Position numbers and translations under genes: made by a program. The notes under the pieces are model-generated. The model did no database searches and had not been told where the DNA came from. It saw only the letters and a program-made list of their open reading frames with translations. This document shows positions 1-31,798 of a DNA stretch of 64,000 nt, piece after piece; position 1 is the first letter of the stretch; each line of letters opens with the position of its first letter. Where the stretch lies: assembly GCF_053078305.1 (NCBI RefSeq), contig NZ_CP166879.1, one strand, 5' to 3'.

Positions 1-834
1 GAACCGGTGGTGGTGCCTCTTTCAGTCCGTGGCAGCAGTACGGTACAACCCGGGGCACCGGTATCCGGGATCCGGTCTGAAGTACCGGAGTGTCAACCGG
101 ATACGGATACAGAGGCGATGCCGGAAAGCACAGTCTCCATATTCCCCGGTACTGAGCGCGAGCAACATGGTATTACCCGGCCACTGAAAGCCGTGTCTGA
201 TACTGACACAGAGCGCACTGAAAAATGCAGTCGACCTTCTCAGGAAGAGAGCGCAGGCAGGGGGGACAGTGGGGCGTCTTCTGCTGAAAATGCCCTGCGT
301 CCTGAGATACAGCCGGATATGTACGGTGGTAAGCCAGTCTTCAGTGGTGATGTTATGGAAGATGGTGCTGCCGGAGCAGTACTGGCATCAGTTATGACAG
401 GAGATACTGCTCCGGGAACCACTGATGCTCTTCCCGCGTCGGTGACGCACTTTGCTGTGGGGCGGGATGATATCGAACATCTGCAGAATGAAGCGTTCCG
501 TCTGGCCTGGGAACTGGCTGAATCAGCCGGTTGTGCTGAAGAGATTGCCATGGACAGGGAAAGCGACCTGTCTGCCGGTTTCGGGGCAACAGTGGAGAAA
601 TGTTCTCCTGTAGTGGCGTTTCTGGCGGGTCTGGCCGGTGATGCACCGCGGACAGTCCTCCCCGTGAGTCTGAAAGACCTGCTTACAGGGGGCAGTGCAC
701 CGGAAGCGTGGCCACTGCTGGATGACGACCATGCCGTGAAGCTGCTGCGTCTTCTGAGTGTGCTGCGCCGCCTGAGAGCCCTGCAGCGCAGTGTATTACC
801 CGACGACGATGAGGGGGATGAGAATGATGAGTGA
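1..834 (+). CDS. hypothetical protein, 5' end probably truncated by window edge
   Basis: Frame 1 is open from position 1 with no upstream stop; ORF track reports 7..834 from the first GTG. Acidic C-terminus. No recognisable motif. Confidence 0.45.
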   Translation, partial: EPVVVPLSVRGSSTVQPGAPVSGIRSEVPECQPDTDTEAMPESTVSIFPGTEREQHGITRPLKAVSDTDTERTEKCSRPSQEESAGRGDSGASSAENALRPEIQPDMYGGKPVFSGDVMEDGAAGAVLASVMTGDTAPGTTDALPASVTHFAVGRDDIEHLQNEAFRLAWELAESAGCAEEIAMDRESDLSAGFGATVEKCSPVVAFLAGLAGDAPRTVLPVSLKDLLTGGSAPEAWPLLDDDHAVKLLRLLSVLRRLRALQRSVLPDDDEGDENDE

Positions 835-1552
835 TATGTCGCATCAGGAACGTCTGATCAGGCGGGTCAGGAAACTGCTGGAGCTGAGCCGTAATAACAG
901 CAATGCCCATGAGGCCGGGCTGGCGCTTGCAAGGGCGCAACAGCTGATGGCGAAACACGGTATCACGGAGCAGGATGCCGGACTTTCTTCGGTGCAGACC
1001 TCTTCATCACAGGGGGCACCTTCTGATGCTGAAAAAGTTCCGGCGTGGATGTTTCGTCTGGTCATGGTGGTGACACAGACATTTGGCTGCCGGGCGTATT
1101 ACGACTGGCGGGCGGTGCCCGGAGGCCGGTATCGCCGGTGTGTGACGTTTTACGGTTTCAGTGAACGTCCTCAGGTGGCGGCTTATGCGTTTGATGTTCT
1201 GTGCCGTCAGCTAAGGGAAGCAACGGATGCGTATCTTCGTACACAGAGCCGGAGACTGAAACTGAGCACCCGTCGTGCCCGGGCGGCTCAGTTTCGTGAT
1301 GGCTGGGTTCAGGGGATTCGTCAGGTGGTGATGCCATTCAGTGTGACAGAAGAGGAAAGTCGGCTGATGCGTCTCTGGATGGAGCAGCAGGATATGGTGA
1401 CGGTGGACTCCCGTGAGATGAAAGCCTGTCGCGGCGGTGACCTGGCCCGCTGGCAGGGGTATGAGGCCGGGAAAAATGCCTCACTGCATCATGGTGTGGG
1501 GGAGAGTGCCCGACAGGTGGTGCCGGGTCTGATGATACGGGAGGCGTCATGA
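824..1552 (+). CDS. hypothetical protein with N-terminal helical domain resembling DUF2786
   Basis: ORF 791..1552; internal ATG at 824 follows a GAGGGGG RBS. N-terminal RKLLELS..NAHEAGLALARAQQLMAKHGI pattern typical of DUF2786-type proteins. Overlaps upstream gene, suggesting coupling. Confidence 0.5.
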   Translation: MMSDMSHQERLIRRVRKLLELSRNNSNAHEAGLALARAQQLMAKHGITEQDAGLSSVQTSSSQGAPSDAEKVPAWMFRLVMVVTQTFGCRAYYDWRAVPGGRYRRCVTFYGFSERPQVAAYAFDVLCRQLREATDAYLRTQSRRLKLSTRRARAAQFRDGWVQGIRQVVMPFSVTEEESRLMRLWMEQQDMVTVDSREMKACRGGDLARWQGYEAGKNASLHHGVGESARQVVPGLMIREAS

Positions 1553-2157
1553 ATAACAGCTTGTCTCAGGCAACCAACGGTCTGCTGATGCAACTGGTGA
1601 TGGACCTCAAGAGCGGCTACCTGCGTCGCTGCGAATCTCTGGGGCTGGCCCGGGAGGAAATGCAGATGCTGCAGGGACTGACCATTGAGGAAATTCATTA
1701 CCTGTCAAACTCTGAAGTGTCGGTTATCCGGCTGGACATTAATCATGAAAACCTGCTGCGTATGCTGCAGCAGGCCCGGACGGAGCAGAAACGTCTGCAG
1801 CGCATTGACCGGGCACTGGCGCTGGGAGGCTCCATTGAACTGATGGCGTTTTACTTTGGACTTTCCAGTGTGGATGTGGCAGCGCGCCGTCGCATTGCCG
1901 GTATTGATGTTCGCCCGGGACGTGGCATCACACTGAGTGATGAGGAAAGTGCAGAGCTGTGGCGTTTATGGCAGAAGAGCGGCATCACAGATGTGGAAAG
2001 TGCGGACGGACTGGATGTCATGATGCTGGCAGCTGAGCAAATGAATATCCCGCTGACGGCGGTATGGCATGCAGTGAGGGGATGGCATCAGGGAACTGCG
2101 GGGTTTAATGATGTATCGGCCAGTCGCCGGAAACTGAACCGGGAAAAAGCAGAATGA
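1549..2157 (+). CDS. hypothetical ICE replication-region protein (possibly STY4526/DUF2857-like)
   Basis: 202-aa ORF with 4-bp overlap to upstream gene, same strand as STY4528-like gene downstream. Family assignment from memory, unverified. Confidence 0.45.
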   Translation: MNNSLSQATNGLLMQLVMDLKSGYLRRCESLGLAREEMQMLQGLTIEEIHYLSNSEVSVIRLDINHENLLRMLQQARTEQKRLQRIDRALALGGSIELMAFYFGLSSVDVAARRRIAGIDVRPGRGITLSDEESAELWRLWQKSGITDVESADGLDVMMLAAEQMNIPLTAVWHAVRGWHQGTAGFNDVSASRRKLNREKAE

Positions 2158-2171
2158 CAAGGACAAATGAC

Positions 2172-2321
2172 ATGGCCGAAATTAACTTTCAGGTACTGCG
2201 GGAGGCTGAACAGGTGAAGCGAGAGAACCAGCCGGTTGAGGCTGGAGCGTGGAAAGATGCCGTTGAGTGGGTGCTCCAGGAGGATTGCCAGGCTGTAAAC
2301 ATTCGCATCAAAGGAGAGTGA
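2172..2321 (+). CDS. small ORF (49 aa) whose C-terminal half duplicates the C-terminus of the 2615..3013 protein
   Basis: ATG 2172 to TGA 2319-2321, translating MAEINFQVLREAEQVKRENQPVEAGAWKDAVEWVLQEDCQAVNIRIKGE. Below the ORF-track size cutoff. About 112 bp of its DNA is a direct repeat of 2900..3013. Confidence 0.3.
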   Translation: MAEINFQVLREAEQVKRENQPVEAGAWKDAVEWVLQEDCQAVNIRIKGE

Positions 2322-2323
2322 AC

Positions 2324-2611
2324 ATGGCTACTTTGCAGGAATTAATCGACCTGACGCCAGAACAGGAAAAAGCGTGGAAGCGCCTTGTGAAGGCTGTAAA
2401 GGATTTCAGGGCAGCCGGAGGAAAGTTTTATAGCGTCCTGGACACGCTGAGTGCATACAACGGCGAGCACGTTGCCAGCATTGATAACGATAAGGGCTAC
2501 CACACTGCAAGAGTCTATATGCCTGGCATTGATGCGCCAGGGCTAACCAGTTGGGCTGATGACTGGCACGGCATCACGCTGAAAGATGGCGTTGAAGTGG
2601 ATGATGACTAA
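2324..2611 (+). CDS. hypothetical protein
   Basis: ORF track 2267..2611; preferred start ATG 2324 (MATLQELIDL) directly after AAAGGAGAG RBS embedded in the upstream stop region. Confidence 0.5.
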   Translation: MATLQELIDLTPEQEKAWKRLVKAVKDFRAAGGKFYSVLDTLSAYNGEHVASIDNDKGYHTARVYMPGIDAPGLTSWADDWHGITLKDGVEVDDD

Positions 2612-2614
2612 CAC

Positions 2615-3013
2615 ATGACCACGATTACCAAAGAGCGACTGCAATGGCTGGCTAACATTTCTGGCCGCGATGACATTGACGATATAGACGGCGGTGAGAT
2701 TCGTGAGCTGGCGCTTATCGCGCTGGCATCGCTGGAAGCAGAGCCTGTGGCGTCATGCATTATTGAAGATGGGGGCATGTGTGTTGACGGGGTCGGTGAG
2801 TATGTAGGTCACTCGCTGCCTGGTGGAACGTACCAGCTATACACCGCTTCACCTGTGCCGGTAGTGCCTGAAGGACTGGTTAAAGCAGTGCGCTTTTATG
2901 AACAGGTAAAGCGTGAGAATCCACCAGTTGAAACTGGGGCATGGAAAGATGCCGTTGAGTGGGTGCTCAAAGAGGCTTGCCAGGCTGTAAATATTCGCAT
3001 CAAAGGAGAGTGA
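2615..3013 (+). CDS. hypothetical protein
   Basis: 132-aa ORF, tightly packed with neighbours; C-terminus ...AWKDAVEWVLKEACQAVNIRIKGE is duplicated at 2172..2321. Confidence 0.5.
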   Translation: MTTITKERLQWLANISGRDDIDDIDGGEIRELALIALASLEAEPVASCIIEDGGMCVDGVGEYVGHSLPGGTYQLYTASPVPVVPEGLVKAVRFYEQVKRENPPVETGAWKDAVEWVLKEACQAVNIRIKGE

Positions 3014-3015
3014 GC

Positions 3016-3507
3016 GTGCAGATTTCACCAGTCACTCTTCGTGTTGCGAAGGCGTTTATATCCAGACATCACCGACACAATAAACCTCCGGTGGTGCATA
3101 AATTCAGTATTGGTCTGAGAAATGATGCGGGTGAATTGACAGGTGTGGCGACAGCCGGCAGACCTGTTGCACGCCACTTTGACGATGGGCTGACACTGGA
3201 GGTCAATCGTACCTGTACTACTGGTGAACGTAACGCTAACAGCGCACTTTATGGCGCTGTCTGGAGGGCGGCAAAAGATATGGGCTATCGCCGTTGCATT
3301 ACATACACCAGGGCTGATGAATCCGGGGCCTCTCTTCGGGCAGATGGTTTTGTTCGTGTGAAAGAACTTCCTTCAGGAAAAAGCTGGGCAGAATCAAGTG
3401 TCGCCCTGAAGAGTACACGCGATCCGGTTGGAAGCGGTGGTGTTCCTCGTGTGCTCCGGGAAATCAGGAGAATGAGCACTACTGTCATTCACATCAAAGG
3501 GGAATGA
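3016..3507 (+). CDS. hypothetical protein
   Basis: ORF track 2959..3507; preferred GTG start at 3016 after AAAGGAGAG RBS. Ends with ...IHIKGE, the same junction motif as the two upstream genes. Confidence 0.5.
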   Translation: MQISPVTLRVAKAFISRHHRHNKPPVVHKFSIGLRNDAGELTGVATAGRPVARHFDDGLTLEVNRTCTTGERNANSALYGAVWRAAKDMGYRRCITYTRADESGASLRADGFVRVKELPSGKSWAESSVALKSTRDPVGSGGVPRVLREIRRMSTTVIHIKGE

Positions 3508-3510
3508 GAT

Positions 3511-3978
3511 ATGGCTATTGCAGAGAGAATGGGTATCTCCTCGCGCGGCGATACTTACGAAATCTGGTTGGGAGCAAACTGTTATCACTACCGCTCTGAT
3601 GGTTATGCAGTGCTTCTGAAAGAAGGCAGGAATCGTGCTTATCCATGTCGGGTGACGAGTGAAACGATTAAATCTGCGCTGGCAGCAATTGTTGAATTGC
3701 AACAGAAATTAACTGCGGCAGAGAAGAAAAAGGAGTGTGAGAACCACGGGGTTCTTTTGCCAGCTGAGATGTTAATTCGCTGTCTGGAAGATCAAACAGG
3801 GGGACGGTGGATCCGTGCACATGAACCAGTAATGCTGATGAAACGATTAATCAGTAACCTGAAAAAAGCCAGACCAGAATGTACCGTTCCTGATGAAGCG
3901 CTGGCATATCTCCGGCGTAACTGTCTGGTGAATATGGGCGATATACCCGTTACCAGCAGACGGATGTCTGACGTATAA
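3511..3978 (+). CDS. hypothetical protein
   Basis: 155-aa ORF starting 3 bp after upstream stop; RBS AAAGGGGAA upstream. Confidence 0.5.
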   Translation: MAIAERMGISSRGDTYEIWLGANCYHYRSDGYAVLLKEGRNRAYPCRVTSETIKSALAAIVELQQKLTAAEKKKECENHGVLLPAEMLIRCLEDQTGGRWIRAHEPVMLMKRLISNLKKARPECTVPDEALAYLRRNCLVNMGDIPVTSRRMSDV

Positions 3979-3995
3979 CAAAAAGGAAAAGTGTA

Positions 3996-4571
3996 ATGAC
4001 ATTACCCGTAGACAGCCTGATTGCGTACACGCTGGAAAAAATGCAAGAGCGGATAGTGCAGAAAGGCCGACAACAGGACGGAAAAATACAAAGCGGACTG
4101 CTGTTTACCGGAAATGTGCATGATGCCATTCCGCGTCGACTGCTTCTGGATACTCGACTTTCTCCGCTGGATAAGATGGCGTGGATGATGATTCGGCTGT
4201 ATGCACAGAATAATGAAGGTGCAGTTTTCCCCACATATGACGAACTGCAACTGCAGCTTGCTTCCCCGGGGAAAGGAAAAGCCTCCAGGGAGACTGTCAG
4301 CCGGGTGCTGCTGATGCTGCGGATCACGGGCTGGCTGAGTCTGTGCAAACGGGTGCGTGATGAGAAAGGGCGGGTACGGGGCAATATTTATGCCCAGCAC
4401 GATGAACCGGTGACGTGCCGGGATGCTGAAATACTGGATCCACGTTATCTGGATATGGTGGCAGATGCCTGTATGAGCCGGAACCGGACCATAAGTCAGA
4501 CGGCCCGGGATATTCTGTGCGAAATAAAAAATGATCCGGGGATGCGTCATTATCACAGCCATATCAGTTAA
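3996..4571 (+). CDS. STY4528-family pathogenicity-island replication protein-like (putative winged-helix DNA-binding)
   Basis: 191-aa ORF; recognised by similarity of sequence pattern and position to the SPI-7 STY4528 family. Followed immediately by a palindromic motif array. Confidence 0.5.
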   Translation: MTLPVDSLIAYTLEKMQERIVQKGRQQDGKIQSGLLFTGNVHDAIPRRLLLDTRLSPLDKMAWMMIRLYAQNNEGAVFPTYDELQLQLASPGKGKASRETVSRVLLMLRITGWLSLCKRVRDEKGRVRGNIYAQHDEPVTCRDAEILDPRYLDMVADACMSRNRTISQTARDILCEIKNDPGMRHYHSHIS

Positions 4572-4650
4572 CTGGAAGCCCGGATAGGGAGTGCCCAGAC
4601 ACCGGGACAGATGGCGGCCCGTCAGCGGGTGACTGAGGACCGAATGCAGC

Positions 4651-4862
4651 CGGGTTCGGAAACCGAACCGGGGGTAGAAACACAGAGTTCGGTATTGAAA
4701 ATGCTGAGTTCGGATTCCGAACTCAGTGAAAAACAGGGGCAAAAAATACTGAGTTCGGATTCCGAACCATCAGAAAAATCAGAAGGTTATCACAGAGTTC
4801 GGAAACCGAACCATTACGTACGTAATATCACACACAGTGTGATTAAAAACACGTACGTATTG
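4651..4862. promoter_or_regulatory. array of palindromic GTTCGGA(A/T)(A/T)CCGAAC motifs plus adjacent perfect palindromes; candidate operator/origin
   Basis: Palindromes at about 4654-4668, 4706-4724, 4751-4768, 4795-4812, a half-site near 4685-4692, then TTACGTACGTAA (4814-4825) and ATCACACACAGTGTGAT (4827-4843). Lies between the STY4528-like gene and the RBS-supported start at 4905. Confidence 0.45.
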
Positions 4863-4904
4863 CCTGAAGCGCTGACAGGGCAAATCAGGGAGGAGGAGGC
4901 CATT

Positions 4905-5240
4905 ATGCTGACCAGTCAGTTGCAGGCGCTGCCGGAAGAACTGGCGCAGGGGGTTCTGGAAAGTCTGTCAGGGATGCTGGGCAGCCACTCGCTGCAGAAT
5001 CCTGTGGGCTGGTTGCTTGCAGTGCTGAAGCGAGCCCGGGAGGGAAATTTTTATCCGCCGAAGCAGAAACAACGTGTTGTTGTGCCAGCCTCCGTACTGG
5101 CAGGAGAAAGGGGGCGAGCTACTGCGCAATCAGTTTCATCGGGGAAACGTACGGAACCGATTTCAGCAGAACGTCTGAGTGGCATTGTGGCTGGATTACG
5201 GGCCTCGCTGCGCAGATGTTCTGCGATGAGACCTGAGTGA
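4905..5240 (+). CDS. hypothetical protein
   Basis: ORF track 4611..5240; the internal ATG at 4905 follows a very strong GGGAGGAGGAGG RBS, and the upstream part of the ORF is filled with palindromic repeats, so I take that part as non-coding. Confidence 0.45.
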   Translation: MLTSQLQALPEELAQGVLESLSGMLGSHSLQNPVGWLLAVLKRAREGNFYPPKQKQRVVVPASVLAGERGRATAQSVSSGKRTEPISAERLSGIVAGLRASLRRCSAMRPE

Positions 5241-5339
5241 TTGCGATACGGGCTATGTTCGCGGGAATAAAAATCAACCAGTGCCGCCAGCGACTGGTTA
5301 AAAAGAAAACAGAATCGGGAACTGGTCAGGTGAAACAAG

Positions 5340-5582
5340 GTGGTAAATAGCATGCAGAAATACAAACAGGAAAGTCTGAGTGCAGCCATGAAAGAAAGTG
5401 GCCTGTTGATCGCTAAAATTTGTGCCTGCGTGATTGCCGGAGTGGTGGTTATCTGGGGACTGGTGACAGGCACAGAGACCCTGCTCACTGCGCTGAAAAC
5501 AATGCACGAACAGTACGATAACAGTATGTGTTATATCGTATGTGCCACAGGGTGGTTTTTCCTGGTGTTAAGTAACTGGCTG
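5340..5582 (+). pseudogene. N-terminal fragment of a membrane-protein gene interrupted by IS66-family insertion
   Basis: GTG 5340 ORF reads into the IS end at 5583. The same frame resumes exactly after the target-site duplication at 8104 and continues to 8352. Confidence 0.6.
5575..5582. repeat. left 8-bp target-site duplication (ACTGGCTG) of IS66-family element
   Basis: ACTGGCTG immediately left of the IS end matches ACTGGCTG at 8096-8103 immediately right of the other end. Confidence 0.8.
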
Positions 5583-5612
5583 GTAAGCGTCAACGGAGCA
5601 CCGTATTGACGC

Positions 5613-7205
5613 TTATTTATTGGTGAGTACTACGTTCCATGGCAAGAGTTCATCAACTCGGTTGGAAGGCCATTCCGGCAGTACGCTCAGGATATGGCGC
5701 AGATACGCTTCCGGATCGATACCGTTCAGACGGCAGGTGCCGATCAGCCCGTACAACAGTGCTCCACGCTCGCCGCCGTGATCGCTGCCAAAGAACATAA
5801 AGTTTTTCTTTCCGAGACAGACTGCACGAAGCGCTCTTTCCGCAGCATTATTATCCGCCTCCGCCAGACCGTCATCACTGTAATAACAGAGGGCATCCCA
5901 CTGATTCAGTACATAGCTGAACGCTTCGCCCAGTCTGGATTTTTTCGACAGCGTACCATTCTTCTCCACCATCCATTCATGCAGCGACGTCAGTAACACT
6001 TTGCTTCGCTGCTGCCTGACGGAAAGACGCTCTGACTCCGGTAATCCCCGTATTTCATCCTCGATGGCGTACAGTTCACTGATTCGCTTCAGGGCTTCTT
6101 CTGCCTTCGCACTTTTGCTGCTGATGTATACATCGTGGATTTTTCGCCGGGCATGGGCCCAGCACGCAACTTCTGTCAGTGCACCACCTTCACGTTCTGC
6201 ACTGAACAACCTGTCGTAACCTGTGAACGCATCCGCCTGCAGGATACCCCGGAAGGGGCGGAGGTGTTGCTCCGGGTGTTTCCCCTGCCGGTTCGGCGAG
6301 TACGCGAACCAGACCGCTGGAGGAGATGACGAACCCACATTGCGATCATCCCGGACATACGTCCAGATACGCCCTGTTTTCGCCTTTTTCTGACCCGGTG
6401 CCAGTACCTTTACCGGTGTGTCATCAGTGTGAACCTTGCGGGTGTTCATTACATAACGGTACAGGGCATCATTCACCGGTGTCATTAACTGGCAGCACGC
6501 GTCAACCCAGTTGGAGAGTAAGGCCCGGCTCAGTTCGACACCCTTGCGGGCAAAGATTTCACTCTGACGATACAGTGGCAGATGTTCGCAGTATTTTCCC
6601 GTTAACACGCGGGCAAGTAATCCGGGGCCCGCGATACCACGCTCTATCGGGCGGGACGGCGCCGGTGCTTCAACGATGCAGTCACATTTTGTACAGGCTT
6701 TTTTTACCCGTTCTGTGCGGATCACTTTCAGGGCGCTGCTCACCAGTTCCAGTTGTTCTGCACTGACTTCCCCCAGATAATCCAGCTCACCGCCACACTC
6801 CGGGCAACAGCTTTCTTCAGACTCCAGACGGTGTATTTCACGGGGAAGGTGTGCCGGTAACGGACGACGATGGCGCGACTGTCGCAACTGGCGGGGAACC
6901 TGTGGATCGTCTTCCCGCCCACTGTAACGATCGCTGTCCTGTTCGCGTTGTTTCAGCAGGGCCTCAGCCTGTTCAACTTCACGACGCAGTTTTTCAGAAC
7001 GGGTACCGAACAGCATCCGGCGCAGTTTTTCTATCTGAGCCCGCAGATGTTCTATTTCCCGTTCATCTTCTTCGATCTTTTCTTCGGCACGTGCCAGTGC
7101 AGAGCGCAGGAAGGCCTCCGTCTCTTCAACCAGACTCAGTTGCTGGTCTTTCTGACGGAGCTGGCTTTCCAGTTCTGCAATGCGAATGAGGTATTTCTGA
7201 CTCAT
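5613..7205 (-). CDS. tnpC: IS66-family transposase (TnpC / Orf3)
   Basis: 530-aa ORF with N-terminal leucine-zipper-like coiled coil, CPECGGE zinc-finger motif and the conserved IS66 transposase core. Confidence 0.9.
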   Translation of the reverse strand: MSQKYLIRIAELESQLRQKDQQLSLVEETEAFLRSALARAEEKIEEDEREIEHLRAQIEKLRRMLFGTRSEKLRREVEQAEALLKQREQDSDRYSGREDDPQVPRQLRQSRHRRPLPAHLPREIHRLESEESCCPECGGELDYLGEVSAEQLELVSSALKVIRTERVKKACTKCDCIVEAPAPSRPIERGIAGPGLLARVLTGKYCEHLPLYRQSEIFARKGVELSRALLSNWVDACCQLMTPVNDALYRYVMNTRKVHTDDTPVKVLAPGQKKAKTGRIWTYVRDDRNVGSSSPPAVWFAYSPNRQGKHPEQHLRPFRGILQADAFTGYDRLFSAEREGGALTEVACWAHARRKIHDVYISSKSAKAEEALKRISELYAIEDEIRGLPESERLSVRQQRSKVLLTSLHEWMVEKNGTLSKKSRLGEAFSYVLNQWDALCYYSDDGLAEADNNAAERALRAVCLGKKNFMFFGSDHGGERGALLYGLIGTCRLNGIDPEAYLRHILSVLPEWPSNRVDELLPWNVVLTNK

Positions 7206-7235
7206 GACCGTTTTTATAATGCGGTCAGGATTTTT

Positions 7236-7586
7236 TTACAACATTGTCAGTGAGTTACGGCGGGATGTTTTTGGCTGACGCCAGTCCAGCTTATCGAGGA
7301 GCATTGCCAGTTGCGAGCGGGTAATGGATACCTTGCCGTCACGTACCGCAGGCCAGATAAACTGGCCTTCCTCCAGGCGTTTAGTGAACAGGCACAGACC
7401 ATCAGCATCAGCCCAAAGAATTTTAACGGTGTCACCCCGTCGGCCACGGAAGATAAACAGGTGACCGGAGAAGGGATTATCATTCAGCACATGTTGTACC
7501 TGTTCTCCCAGTCCGTTGAAGGATTTACGCATATCGGTAACGCCGGCAACGAGCCAGATACGGGTACCTGATGGGAGTGAGATCAT
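7236..7586 (-). CDS. tnpB: IS66-family accessory protein TnpB (Orf2)
   Basis: 116-aa ORF typical of IS66 Orf2, 4-bp overlap with tnpA. Confidence 0.85.
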   Translation of the reverse strand: MISLPSGTRIWLVAGVTDMRKSFNGLGEQVQHVLNDNPFSGHLFIFRGRRGDTVKILWADADGLCLFTKRLEEGQFIWPAVRDGKVSITRSQLAMLLDKLDWRQPKTSRRNSLTML

Positions 7587-8008
7587 CTTCCCCTCCCGGT
7601 CAGTTCACGGATCAACACCGTGAGCAGCTCTGGCGATGGATTTTCCAGCGTCATGTTACCGTGACGGAATTCCACCTTGCAGGAGCTGGCACTGACTCTG
7701 GTCTGAGAGGTAGTGGATAAAGATGGCGCAATGGCCACCACAGGTTCTTTCTGCTCATCCGGCGTTATTTCTACAGGTAATAATTCAACGCCAGTGTCAG
7801 AAGAGGTCGTTACCGGAAGACGCCGCGAAACACGCCCTTCGTTCTGCCAGAGCCTGAGCCATTTGAACAGGAGGTTATCATTGATATCGTGTTCCCGGGC
7901 GATACGGGCAACAGAGGCTCCTGGTTGCAAAGCCAGTTTAACCATTTGAAGTTTAAAATTATTTGAAAATGATCTGCGGGGTTCTGCGGATAATGTTTTT
8001 TGCTCCAT
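7583..8008 (-). CDS. tnpA: IS66-family TnpA (Orf1), helix-turn-helix protein
   Basis: 141-aa ORF at the 5' end of the IS66 operon; N-terminal HTH-like region. Confidence 0.8.
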   Translation of the reverse strand: MEQKTLSAEPRRSFSNNFKLQMVKLALQPGASVARIAREHDINDNLLFKWLRLWQNEGRVSRRLPVTTSSDTGVELLPVEITPDEQKEPVVAIAPSLSTTSQTRVSASSCKVEFRHGNMTLENPSPELLTVLIRELTGRGR

Positions 8009-28964: not shown

Positions 28965-31798
28965 TGCGATTTTCCCTGTTTACAGACACAAAAAAACGGG
29001 TTTCTTCCCCGGTGTCGCAGCATGACGGAGAAGCGGTATCTCCGGATATGAAAGAAAGAGTGGACCCTCAGGTACGAAAGCCACTGTCAAGGCCGGGGAA
29101 GATGACCCGACAGGATGAGACGAAGGTTTACCATGCCTGTCCGTCGGTGATTGATTTTCTGCCATGGGTGGAATATCTGGACGAAGAGCAGTGCCTGCTG
29201 CTGGATGATGGGGTGTCGGTTGGTGCCGTGTATGAGGTGAGTCCGGCTGCTACGGAAGGGCGGACCGCAGAGCGTCTGGAGCAAATCCGGGATACGGTGG
29301 AGGATGCGCTGCAGGACAGTTTTGATGAATATGACTCACATCCCTGGGTGGTGCAGTTCTTCTGTCAGGATGAAAACGACGTGGACACGTATGTTGACCA
29401 GCTCAGGGGGTACGTGAAACCTCATGCAGAAGGCTCCTCATTTACGGAGGCCTGGCTGAGGGAGATGGAGCGCCATCTGAAGGGGATTGCCCGACCGGAA
29501 GGTCTGTTCAGGGATACGCTGGTCACAGGTCAGCCATGGCGTGGTCAGCAGCGGCGCACGAGGATGGTGATTTACCGGTGGATCGGGAAAAACAACCACG
29601 ATCCGATGCCGCCGGTGGCAATGCTGAACCAGGTCTGTTCGCGGGTCGTGGGGGCGCTGGGTGGCGCAGGCGTCCGCTGTACACGGATGAACGGGCAGCA
29701 GGTGCATGGCTGGCTGCTGAGGCTGTTCAATCCCCGGCCGGAATGGGTGGACAGGGATATTCTGTACCGTATGGCATCCCGTGCAGAACCGCAGGAGACA
29801 CCGGAGGGAATGATGCCGGTGATGACCGATTTTGCAGAAAGCCTCTGGTTCACCCCACCGGTATCTGATCCGGAAAACGGCGTGTGGTGGCTGGACGGGC
29901 TTCCGCATGCCGCTGTTGTGGTGGAGAAACTGCGCACACCACCGGAGCCGGGAACCATCACAGGGGAACAGGCCCGGGGCGAAAAGACAGTGAATGCCCT
30001 GATGGACACCTTTCCGGAGGGAACGGTGCTGTGTATGACAATTGTGGTCCAGCCACAGGACACACTGGAAGAGCGCTTCACGAGGTTGTCGAAAAATGCG
30101 GTCGGGGAGAACAGTGAATCCCTGCGTGCCCGGGAGGATGTGGCGACCGTGAAGAAATATCTGGGAAACCGGCACAAGCTCTACCGTGCCGGGATCACGT
30201 TTCTGCTGCGGGCAGAGGATATGGAGAGTCTGAAGCGCAGACGGGTTGAACTGACGACGGTGCTGCTGGGCGCGGGCTTACAGCCAGTGCGCCCGGAGTT
30301 TGATGTCGGACCGCTGAACAGCTGGCTGCGCGCGCTGCCCATGTGTTTTGATCCTGATACGGATAAAAAACAGTGGTACACGCGTCTGATGTGGGTACAG
30401 CATCTGGCAGGGCTCCTGCCGGTGACGGGAAGGGAAACCGGTACGGGGCATCCCGGATTCAGTTTCTTTAACCGTGGCGGGGATGTGCTGACCTTTGATC
30501 CGCTGAACAAGCTGGACCGGACCCAGAATGCACATCTGCTGCTTTTCGGGCCTACCGGAGCCGGTAAATCGGCCACGCTGTGTGGTTCGTTGTCGCAGAT
30601 AATGGCAGTTCATCGTCCCCGTCTGTTTATCGCTGAGGCCGGGAACTCGTTTGGTCTGCTGGCGGATTATTTTGAGAGTCTCGGGCTTTCGGTTAACAAA
30701 ATCAGTGTCAAACCGGGAACGGGGGTGTGTCTTCCTCCATTTGCGGATGCTCATCAACTGGTGGAGCAGGGAGAGACGCTGCAGAGTGTGGATGAGCATT
30801 CACTGCCCGATCTTGATGAAGATGAGGGGGATGAAGAGGCAGAGAAACGCGACATTCTGGGGGAGATGGAAATCTCTGCCCGCATGATGATCACCGGAGG
30901 GGATCCGAAAGAAGAAGCAGCGCTCAAACGTGCGGACAGGGCGATGATCCGTGAGGCACTGCTGATGGCCACGCACACCACGTACCGGGAGGGGCGTCAG
31001 ATGCTGCCGGTGGATCTGCAGAGTGCGTTGTGGGAAATTTCGCGGGACACTCAGCGTAATGATGTTCGCCGGGCTAAAGCCGCAGAGATGGCAGAGTCGC
31101 TGGGGATGTTCACCCAGCCGGGCAGTTTTGAAGCGGAGCTGTTTAACCGGGAAGGAAAACTGTGGCCGGAAGCGGATGTGACCCTGATTGATCTGGGGCA
31201 TCTTGCCCGTGAAGGTTATGAAGCCCAGATGGCACTGACCATGGTGTCAATGACCAATATGATTAACAACATTGCCGAGCGCGATCAGTATCTGGGACGG
31301 GATATTCTGTTTGTGGTGGATGAGGCGCATATCGTGACGGTAAACCCGCTTTTGTCCCCGTATATGACCAAAGTGGTGAAAATGTGGCGCAAGCTGGGGG
31401 CCTGGCTGTGGCTGGCCACGCAGAACCTGAAGGATTATCCGGATGTTTCAGAGAAGATGCTGAATATGGCAGAGTGGTGGGTGTGCCTGACCATGCCGCC
31501 GGAGGAAGTGAACAATATTGCCCGTTTTAAATCCCTGACGGAGGAGCAGAAGGCGGTACTGCTGTCAGCCAGTAAACTGTCCGGCTGCTATACGGAGGGG
31601 GTGGTACTGGCGAAGCGCACAGAAGCGTTGTTCCGGGTTGTGCCACCGAGTCTGTATCTGGCTCTGGGGATGACGGAGAAAGAAGAGAAGGCTGAACGCC
31701 GCGCCCTGATGAAGGTGCACCAGTGCAGCGAACTGGAAGCAGCGTTTCATGTGGCACGAAAGCTGGACGGGCTACGTGGTCTGGCTGGCAGGGAGTGA
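28961..31798 (+). CDS. traC: conjugative transfer ATPase (VirB4/TraC-like, ICE class)
   Basis: 945-aa ORF; Walker A LLLFGPTGAGKSAT and Walker B-like region FVVDEAH. Confidence 0.85.
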   Translation: MMRFSLFTDTKKRVSSPVSQHDGEAVSPDMKERVDPQVRKPLSRPGKMTRQDETKVYHACPSVIDFLPWVEYLDEEQCLLLDDGVSVGAVYEVSPAATEGRTAERLEQIRDTVEDALQDSFDEYDSHPWVVQFFCQDENDVDTYVDQLRGYVKPHAEGSSFTEAWLREMERHLKGIARPEGLFRDTLVTGQPWRGQQRRTRMVIYRWIGKNNHDPMPPVAMLNQVCSRVVGALGGAGVRCTRMNGQQVHGWLLRLFNPRPEWVDRDILYRMASRAEPQETPEGMMPVMTDFAESLWFTPPVSDPENGVWWLDGLPHAAVVVEKLRTPPEPGTITGEQARGEKTVNALMDTFPEGTVLCMTIVVQPQDTLEERFTRLSKNAVGENSESLRAREDVATVKKYLGNRHKLYRAGITFLLRAEDMESLKRRRVELTTVLLGAGLQPVRPEFDVGPLNSWLRALPMCFDPDTDKKQWYTRLMWVQHLAGLLPVTGRETGTGHPGFSFFNRGGDVLTFDPLNKLDRTQNAHLLLFGPTGAGKSATLCGSLSQIMAVHRPRLFIAEAGNSFGLLADYFESLGLSVNKISVKPGTGVCLPPFADAHQLVEQGETLQSVDEHSLPDLDEDEGDEEAEKRDILGEMEISARMMITGGDPKEEAALKRADRAMIREALLMATHTTYREGRQMLPVDLQSALWEISRDTQRNDVRRAKAAEMAESLGMFTQPGSFEAELFNREGKLWPEADVTLIDLGHLAREGYEAQMALTMVSMTNMINNIAERDQYLGRDILFVVDEAHIVTVNPLLSPYMTKVVKMWRKLGAWLWLATQNLKDYPDVSEKMLNMAEWWVCLTMPPEEVNNIARFKSLTEEQKAVLLSASKLSGCYTEGVVLAKRTEALFRVVPPSLYLALGMTEKEEKAERRALMKVHQCSELEAAFHVARKLDGLRGLAGRE

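Follow-up and report, generated by a model that had tools for sequence, protein, structure and literature searches.

A short gene-end linker at probable recombination joints between lambdoid accessory genes in an integrative conjugative element

The block of small genes described here lies at 2172-3510 of a 64,000-nucleotide (nt) stretch of contig NZ_CP166879.1 (RefSeq assembly GCF_053078305.1; this whole stretch is referred to as the window), and three of its genes end in the same short junction, which we call J1. An earlier note on this DNA had drawn attention to a duplicated coding module and to a shared gene-end motif in the block. The window contains genes for DUF2786, DUF2857 and an STY4528-family replication protein (Pfam/NCBIfam), and in near-identical RefSeq loci the slot that holds the block is flanked by dnaB-PI/ParB on one side and by topoisomerase III, PFL_4669/TIGR0375x proteins of integrative conjugative elements (ICEs) and TraD on the other. 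The region is, on its gene content, an ICE of the SPI-7/pKLC102 type. A sister ICE carries ParE-like, DUF7446 and Ea22-like genes in the same slot between the DUF2857 and STY4528-family genes, and the slot is therefore variable. BLAST homology to phage DNA is confined to 2207-3523, with none outside, and the 35 nt at 2172-2206 add a match to the starts of Ea22-like genes; no phage homology was found left of ~2172, and on the right it ends at ~3515-3523. By these matches, ~2172-3523 is lambdoid-prophage accessory DNA lodged in a variable slot of a conjugative element. Its features, together with the two flanking genes, are as follows (ORF, open reading frame; SD, Shine-Dalgarno sequence; Stx, Shiga toxin; aa, amino acids; Cmod, the C-terminal module discussed below).

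1549..2157, plus strand: DUF2857 gene of the ICE backbone, left flank of the variable slot (Pfam PF11198, E = 1.6e-66; RefSeq, strain 154)
2172..2321, plus strand: 49-aa ORF, by its Ea22-type start and C-terminal module an internally deleted ead/Ea22-like gene
2207..2326, plus strand: direct-repeat copy A (repeat family D1), Cmod plus J1a
2300..2326, plus strand: J1a, CATTCGCATCAAAGGAGAGTGA-AC-ATG (SD AAGGAG 2311-2316, stop 2319-2321, start 2324)
2324..2611, plus strand: 95-aa gene, a widespread Stx/lambdoid prophage ORFan (phrog_2821, E = 2e-63)
2596..2625, plus strand: junction J2, GATGATGACTAACACATGACCACGATTACC (...DD-stop, 3 nt, ATG; from gene-end listings)
2615..3013, plus strand: 132-aa gene, by sequence a chimera of a DUF551-type N-terminus and an Ea22-type C-terminal module
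2899..3018, plus strand: direct-repeat copy B, Cmod plus J1b (repeat finding)
2992..3018, plus strand: J1b, TATTCGCATCAAAGGAGAGTGA-GC-GTG (SD 3003-3008, stop 3011-3013, XF1762 GTG start 3016)
2994..3050, plus strand: predicted mRNA hairpin over J1b and the XF1762 start (folding)
3016..3507, plus strand: XF1762-family (Mom-like) gene, 163 aa, GTG start, tail ...MSTTVIHIKGE (NF045478)
3486..3513, plus strand: J1c, a diverged copy, CATTCACATCAAAGGGGAATGA-GAT-ATG (SD AAGGGG 3497-3502, stop 3505-3507, start 3511)
3511..3978, plus strand: 155-aa gene, right flank, kept in all ICE variants (RefSeq annotation and variant comparison)

The repeat noted between 2209-2321 and the terminal 112 bp of gene 2615-3013 is real, and its coordinates required adjustment by only 2-5 nt: repeat finding returned a 120-nt direct repeat, 2207-2326 and 2899-3018, the copies of which lie 692 nt apart and are 87% identical (15 of the 120 positions differ). 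The 49-aa ORF at 2172-2321 likewise exists and is annotated in RefSeq (WP_001562667.1). As for the shared motif at three gene ends, the 64-kb window has exactly three copies of ATCAAAGGRGARTGA (at 2307, 2999 and 3493; expectation 0), and no match turned up across 100 dinucleotide shuffles; a longer 22-nt form, CATTCGCATCAAAGGAGAGTGA, is 86-100% identical among the window copies. The description of these as three consecutive genes holds only in part. Three genes do end in J1, but they belong to four in a row, the 95-aa gene at 2324-2611 intervening; this gene ends ...VEVDDD-stop in another junction, GATGACTAACACATGACC, so it is not J1-ended.

Written out, J1 is (GCTGGCATTCG)CATCAAAGGAGAGTGA-N-ATG and reads K-G-E-stop in frame; its consensus block, (cgcgcc)GCTGGCATTCGCATCAAAGGAGAGTGA-t-ATG(gc), encodes ...(A)GIRIKGE-stop. 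When viral contigs were scanned for the exact 16-mer core CATCAAAGGAGAGTGA, at least 120 loci were returned, with at least 120 genuine J1 occurrences, and about eight further core matches in unrelated contexts were discounted as chance. Among the matches listed, 12 upstream and 23 downstream DNA classes (the latter an upper estimate) share no sequence and are joined in 63 combinations. Most upstream partners among these matches are Ea22-like proteins whose C-terminal domains are unrelated, and XF1762 is a further one; the downstream partners include XF1762, ClpX-zinc-finger, DUF551, HNH endonuclease and several ORFans. For pairs of listed matches in which both flanks are unrelated, the median length of exact identity is 26 nt, 16 of them preset by the search core, and 73% of pairs reach at least 23 nt.

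The junction was also recovered in a sample assembled independently of it, consisting of 76 Ea22-like genes drawn via their N-terminal coiled-coil region. About 50 of the 76 end in GGCATTCGCATCAAAGGAGAGTGA (...GIRIKGE-stop), across at least 10 unrelated C-terminal domains and with almost no synonymous variation. In complete E. coli genomes, a 39-nt J1 probe found 2703 places in 1664 of 5426 genomes, with at most six per genome, and J1 is also present in P7, HK620 (hkaG/hkaF), P22-like Salmonella phages, phiV10 and P1-like plasmids. J1 is hence one short sequence that borders non-homologous modules in many genomes and, on this distribution, is a well-defined mosaic-boundary linker of known phage type, extended to an ICE and to plasmids.

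Phage lambda belongs to the same set, its ea22 gene ending in a perfect J1 (locus L208, ~29,820-29,875). The lambda sequence that follows (GATCGGTTTTGTAAAAG...) lacks a start codon, and in related phages a 7-codon mini-ORF, ATGAGCAGGAATACGGGTTTGTAA, occupies this place; the linker in lambda looks like a relic. An ea22 gene with J1 also appears in three records, two of them labelled as phages (Campylobacter phage CJLB-4, 48,361 bp, and Xanthomonas phage NR08) and one as a plasmid of Stenotrophomonas maltophilia (48,499 bp); the ~48.5-kb sizes suggest lambda DNA, possibly contamination by control DNA. Separately, in the ICE of E. coli GPEC1031 (locus L125, 5973-6473) the J1 stop codon has been lost, and ...AGIRIKGE continues as CFDKERLSSVRLTSKQQEATSE and a stop to give a 166-aa protein in which J1 is internal.

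With respect to translation, the proposal of the earlier note that the motif supplies the SD of the next gene agrees with the spacing of all three copies, which is nearly ideal. AAGGAG at 2311-2316 lies 7 nt before ATG 2324, AAGGAG at 3003-3008 lies 7 nt before GTG 3016, and the AAGGGG of J1c (3497-3502) lies 8 nt before ATG 3511. The 3′ half of J1, AAAGGAGAGTGAT, constitutes an extended SD (the perfect complement of the 16S tail is TAAGGAGGTGATC), and the duplexes predicted with the 16S 3′ tail amount to -13.9 kcal/mol for both J1a and J1b and -8.1 kcal/mol for J1c. Variants of the junction, AAAAGAGGTGAGTAATG (IKRGE-stop) and AAAGGAGGTGAGTAATG (IKGGE-stop), alter the encoded peptide while the SD match is kept or improved. 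The gap between stop and start is 2-3 nt in the window and 1 nt in 100 of the 120 viral occurrences listed. The arrangement is that of termination-reinitiation, with the SD inside the upstream ORF and stop and start codons within a few nucleotides of each other.

Folding further predicts a hairpin at 2994-3050, in which the SD, stop codon and GTG start of J1b pair with XF1762 codons ~6-12. The minimum free energy of the fold is -24.4 kcal/mol; its z-score is -2.36, and of 200 shuffles 9 fold equally well. The same hairpin is predicted in three other loci (L002, L105 and L118). In our view it might serve to make translational coupling obligatory. Compared with the ATTGG variant of most phage copies, the ATTCG variant found in the window strengthens this predicted hairpin.

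The block is shortened in three variants of the ICE:

ICE variant B (L206, OkiPb01677), 1 genome: deletes 2147-2594 (448 nt), which joins DUF2857 to the final five codons of the 95-aa gene and leaves J2 in place
ICE variant C1 (L205, NCCP 13963), 2 genomes: deletes 2212-3133 (922 nt), which fuses the 49-aa ORF into the XF1762 interior
ICE variant C2 (L207, JNEC-KY202), 5 genomes: deletes 2204-3119 (916 nt), which fuses the 49-aa ORF into the XF1762 interior

These deletions are independent natural events with differing endpoints and 0-3 nt of microhomology, and all of them are in frame with the downstream junction kept, for which the chance expectation is 1/27, or 1/81 if the internal deletion of the Ea22-like gene is counted too. 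They fit selection for ribosomes running on to the next junction. In C1 and C2 the conserved XF1762 domain has lost its N-terminal ~40 residues, and XF1762 is therefore dispensable for the element. A promoter scan of 1-5600 returned no plus-strand promoter-like site, at J1 or elsewhere, and terminator-like hits were in weak excess (8 versus 4.1 +/- 2.1 in shuffles), with none at J1. The earlier claim that the operon is translationally coupled thus stands at the level of sequence, through the extended SD, the short stop-start gap, the predicted hairpin and the in-frame deletions; from these features we infer actual coupling, in which ribosomes would be passed from cistron to cistron, the next start being 1-3 nt past the stop.

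The genes joined by J1 are themselves composite. Cmod, roughly the last 47 codons (PEGLVKAVRFYEQVKRENPPVETGAWKDAVEWVLKEACQAVNIRIKGE), is the C-terminal part of one class of ead/Ea22-like protein, and alignment shows it joined to at least six unrelated N-terminal parts in phages. In the 49-aa ORF, the first 35 nt are identical at 29 of 35 positions to Ea22-like gene starts, with the start codon in register, against a background of 14.9 +/- 1.7. This start (MAEINFQVLRE) continues in frame into the final 36 codons of the Ea22-type C-terminal module, the last 115 nt of the ORF corresponding to Cmod plus J1, and the 3′ part matches phrog_26213 and phrog_660. The ORF is, on this comparison, an Ea22-like gene shortened by an in-frame internal deletion. 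That its N-terminus might instead be a diverged extension of the repeat (Cmod helix 1) was considered and rejected, as the match to Ea22 starts is far stronger. An alternative ATG at 2154 would overlap the DUF2857 stop codon.

The 132-aa gene has a DUF551-type beginning (MTTITKER...ALASLEAEP), its DNA at 2614-2742 being 92% identical to that of locus L036, and an Ea22-type end, in which 2857-3013 is 88-90% identical to Ea22-like gene ends. The gene also matches phrog_660. By these matches it is a chimera of the two. Neither this protein nor the 49-aa one gave any NCBIfam or Pfam match to the ead/Ea22 model, both are without the coiled coil, and the 49-aa ORF, which has no NCBIfam match, is of insufficient length for assignment to the family. 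Nonetheless, continuity with ead/Ea22 is apparent at the DNA level, since identity to the 3′ ends of annotated Ea22-like genes is 80-90% both in the 3′ 115 nt of the 49-aa ORF and in the final ~155 nt of the 132-aa gene. On sequence grounds, then, the two genes are fragments or chimeras of the ead/Ea22 family, not full members, and short ORFs such as the 49-aa one may be read as gene remnants held in frame and not as new genes. AlphaFold2 models of the 132-aa and 49-aa proteins (predicted local distance difference test scores of 52 and 62) were too poor for a fold search; at the level of secondary structure only, these low-confidence models have a helix-loop-helix with an unstructured IRIKGE tail.

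Between the two lies the 95-aa gene, which is 94-97% identical to genes of Stx2 phages, VT2-Sakai and many prophages. Its right boundary is J2, where homology to phage loci ends (at 2629). This second junction recurs as GAGGACTAACACATGACCAC (...ED-stop, 3 nt, ATG-ACC-AC) ahead of MTT(I/F)T... genes, and J2-type junctions are also found in loci L002, L003 and L004 and in many viral loci.

Between the two Cmod copies there are 10 synonymous and 4 nonsynonymous changes. The synonymous divergence (dS) is 0.64, and the ratio of nonsynonymous to synonymous divergence (dN/dS) is 0.07; the copies have therefore long diverged under purifying selection in full-length genes. Each copy is nearer to separate phage loci than to its partner. 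By this measure, the two copies are old diverged alleles brought in by recombination, with no duplication in situ.

Comparison with other loci indicates where the pieces were joined. The module shuffling that the earlier note had suspected is evident from the same modules in other orders in a plasmid and a lambdoid prophage. Specifically, plasmid p07_3337-3 (L002) carries [N-domain+Cmod]-J1-XF1762-J1-95aa, and a lambdoid prophage (L003) carries Ea22-like(Cmod)-J1-95aa-DUF551. L002 and L003 are 95% identical apart from a precise 494-nt indel of XF1762 plus J1, the ends of which lie inside the shared GCATCAAAGGAGAGTGA. The window, for its part, is 80.6% identical to L003 over 2207-2299, 97.2% over the 95-aa gene and 83% past J2, and in several loci a 96% match to the window starts exactly at 2300, the first base of J1. 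Breakpoints and indels consequently fall at the linker, as identity steps at J1a and J2 and as the 494-nt indel. Among the viral matches listed, XF1762 is always preceded by Cmod, and XF1762 homologues in other genera have a domain that ends ...RVLWEIR(R) and is followed by short unrelated tails, the ...MSTTGIRIKGE tail being restricted to E. coli-type XF1762 genes. As the tail is missing from the other-genus homologues, J1 is therefore an appended linker and not part of the enzyme. The ICE-carrying genomes also hold prophages with the same modules (four matching places in strain 154), and the substrates for exchange therefore reside together.

Taken together, these observations make it likely, in our judgment, that the patchwork in the window arose from lambdoid cassettes joined and reassorted via J1. 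In such a scheme, J1 would act as a homology patch for recombination by phage Red/RecET-type or host functions, and exchange at J1 would reassort whole genes and Ea22-like C-terminal domains while reading frames and expression signals stay intact. Cassettes of the exo-xis / ea / nin type would have recombined into the slot between the DUF2857 and STY4528-family genes, and four products would now be visible: an Ea22-like gene cut by an in-frame deletion to the 49-aa remnant (start, last 36 codons and J1); the 95-aa Stx-phage ORFan cassette between J1 and J2; the chimeric 132-aa gene, with a second, anciently diverged allele of the C-terminal module and J1; and the XF1762/Mom-like gene, with J1 at both sides. 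The minimal efficient pairing segment is quoted as 23-27 bp for Red-beta and 31-34 bp for RecA (PMC3945230), and the length of J1 matches the former. From the sequence comparisons, we infer that recombination initiates within J1.

Several points weigh against this interpretation. At 23-33 nt, the shared sequence lies at the bottom of the length range in which homologous recombination is efficient, and the three deletions of the ICE lineage used microhomologies of 0-3 nt and not J1; illegitimate recombination plus selection therefore also acts at the window slot. The count of 23 unrelated downstream partners is an upper estimate, as some downstream classes share an MTTITKER-type N-terminal motif, and because 16 nt of the identity between J1 matches follow from the search core, the parts free of this ascertainment bias are the ~8-17 nt 5′ of the core and the Ea22-anchored sample. 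On the side of translation, the z-score of the hairpin is modest, and the in-frame argument comprises three or four events.

The most direct alternative for the repeat is that a tandem duplication arose locally and recently, or that the assembly of this genome produced it as an artefact, the latter being what the earlier note had named as grounds for refutation. Two copies in direct orientation 692 nt apart would suit this explanation, but the differences at 15 of 120 positions, the dS and dN/dS values and the location of the closest relatives of the two copies in different phage loci do not. The identical layout is moreover found in 10 independently assembled complete E. coli genomes, with 99.4-99.7% identity to the window arrangement, which rules out an artefact. 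We rejected duplication in situ and artefact alike on copy divergence and recurrence, and consider such an origin almost inconceivable. It is unlikely, though less decidedly so, that J1 is convergent, each gene having evolved a strong SD over its stop codon and the joints having been made by illegitimate recombination and selection with none of them targeted. Illegitimate recombination with functional selection is regarded as a major route by which phage genomes are built (PMC3974807), microhomology-mediated deletions of this kind are seen at the window locus itself, the short core AAAGGAGAGTGAT is found after ...LRTKGE, ...RSNKGE and ...AAGKGE without the 5′ half of J1, and other gene ends of the region encode different SDs, such as CAGGAGGTTAA and GAGGACTAA. 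Convergence nevertheless leaves unexplained the 12-17 extra identical nucleotides (GCTGGCATTCGCATC) 5′ of the SD on unrelated genes, as well as the 494-nt cassette indel that ends in the repeat and the identity steps exactly at J1. A dedicated site-specific cassette system, either integron-like or driven by a homing endonuclease, with J1 as its attachment site, appears very improbable. Single genes flanked by J1 copies (XF1762) and an HNH endonuclease gene among the downstream partners would be expected of it, but the repeat search found neither an inverted repeat nor an attC-like hairpin in J1, integrase or recombinase genes show no consistent linkage to it, its neighbours differ between loci, and in none of the ICE, prophage and plasmid settings does an integrase lie next to the cassettes. 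Nor is there an Rfam match: a scan of 1500-5300 at E <= 1 gave chance-level eukaryotic/archaeal matches only.

A different kind of alternative concerns the peptide that J1 encodes. All Ea22 proteins, those of lambda and Stx phages, have been reported to carry a +GE tripeptide, the significance of which was left open (Dydecka et al. 2020, PMC7093339). If the (A)GIRIKGE tail were kept for a function of the peptide, as a degradation or interaction tag, the identity at the DNA level and the SD would be by-products. The presence of the tail on many proteins, its occurrence on all Ea22 proteins and the preservation of K-G-E in J1c via two synonymous changes (GGA>GGG and GAG>GAA) can be read in this way. 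Synonymous sites are, however, nearly invariant over at least 10 unrelated C-terminal domains, which argues for identity by descent at the DNA level; AAAAGAGGTGAGTAATG and AAAGGAGGTGAGTAATG alter the peptide while the SD is retained or improved; in other genera, XF1762 homologues do without the tail; and the tail, predicted to be unstructured in the low-confidence models, sits on proteins of unrelated fold and function. We accordingly hold a peptide function to be doubtful, slightly more so than convergence. The +GE tripeptide and the feature described here are the same, as K/R-G-E stands on unrelated C-terminal domains and lambda ea22 ends in J1. Whereas the published motif is a protein motif limited to Ea22, the present one is a DNA-level junction, ...GGCATTCGCATCAAAGGAGAGTGA, that is also carried by XF1762 and ORFans. 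These comparisons suggest that the +GE tail of Ea22 is the SD of the next cistron read in frame, and that the motif belongs to a longer recombination linker shared with non-Ea22 genes, which would give a concrete answer to a small question of lambda biology, namely why all Ea22 proteins end in K/R-G-E.

Reassortment via J1 has precedents in several known systems. The linkers of Susskind and Botstein (summarised in PMC2839356, PMC3974807 and PMC9836094) are likewise short conserved sequences that border interchangeable non-homologous lambdoid modules and are thought to target homologous recombination. In contrast to these, J1 is not intergenic, as it comprises the last ~9 upstream codons plus the stop and doubles as the extended SD of the downstream gene; it acts on single small accessory genes and C-terminal domains instead of large modules; and it is found outside phages too, in the ICE and in plasmids. 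The PeSL (promoter-early stem-loop) mobile regulatory cassettes of T4-type phages, the closest worked example (Arbiol et al. 2010, PMC2839356), for which mini-circles were shown, are ~100-bp intergenic sequences with a sigma-70 promoter and a terminator stem-loop. The likeness to J1 lies in repeated expression signals that flank ORFans in hyperplastic regions, in the gain, loss or substitution of single genes by recombination between the copies on either side, and in the arrival of an inserted gene with its own expression signal. J1, however, is ~25-33 nt long, lies inside the upstream coding sequence and consists of translational signals; there is no promoter or terminator at J1, and the only nearby hairpin (J1b/XF1762 start) has no proper T-run. 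Finally, relaxed Rad52-like recombination has been described as driving the mosaicism of temperate phages (De Paepe et al. 2014, PMC3945230). That model shares with ours the exchange between co-resident prophages or other elements at short or diverged homology, and differs in that its mosaics have longer diverged flanking homology and no specific repeated linker is defined. A literature search for AAAGGAGAGTGA returned unrelated primer matches only, and we found no paper on exo-xis with translational coupling or the present reading of J1, the genome papers on HK97/HK022 and HK620 being outside the search.

In terms of significance, roughly one in three complete E. coli genomes carries a specific linker of ~25-33 nt, J1, at which accessory genes of Stx/temperate phages, P1-like plasmids and the ICE appear to be reassorted without loss of expression. 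This bears on the speed with which accessory or 'dark-matter' genes move among the mobile elements of pathogenic E. coli. A bolder proposal, to which we give little credence, is that J1 and J2 together are the attachment sequence of an integrase-free cassette exchange across element types. J1-bounded genes would loop out as small circles through Red/RecET-type recombination and re-insert at another J1 in lambdoid, P22-like or P1-like phages, plasmids or ICEs, where they would be expressed at once, J1 itself being the translational coupling signal. If true, T4 PeSL mini-circles or integron cassettes would have a counterpart at the level of translation, and Botstein's 'linker' idea would regain currency where the accessory regions of temperate phages of enterobacteria are concerned.

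The XF1762 gene may encode a DNA-modifying or anti-restriction function, its family being found on phages, plasmids and the window ICE. The protein matches NCBIfam NF045478 over residues 3-130 (191 bits, cut-off 50) and phrog_1384, 'Mom-like DNA modification protein' (E = 1.3e-38); the Pfam Mom match is weak (19 bits versus a cut-off of 27.1), and a PDB sequence search gave nothing meaningful. The C-terminus of the adjacent 155-aa protein has a weak phrog_660 match. The possibility that XF1762 interrupts what was once a longer phrog_660-type gene, with this C-terminus as its tail, was rejected, as direct comparison with the 166-aa L125 protein revealed no similarity.

Two observations were made downstream of the block. 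A complete IS66-family element (5613-8008, minus strand; tnpC 530 aa, tnpB 116 aa, tnpA 141 aa) lies just 3′ of the replication gene and is missing at the same position in strain 154. The STY4528-family replication gene itself (3996-5240) carries a nonsense change, CAA>TAA at 4569 (Q192*), relative to the intact 414-aa gene of strain 154, which splits it into ORFs 3996-4571 and 4611-5240; given this change, the ICE copy in the window may be replication-defective.

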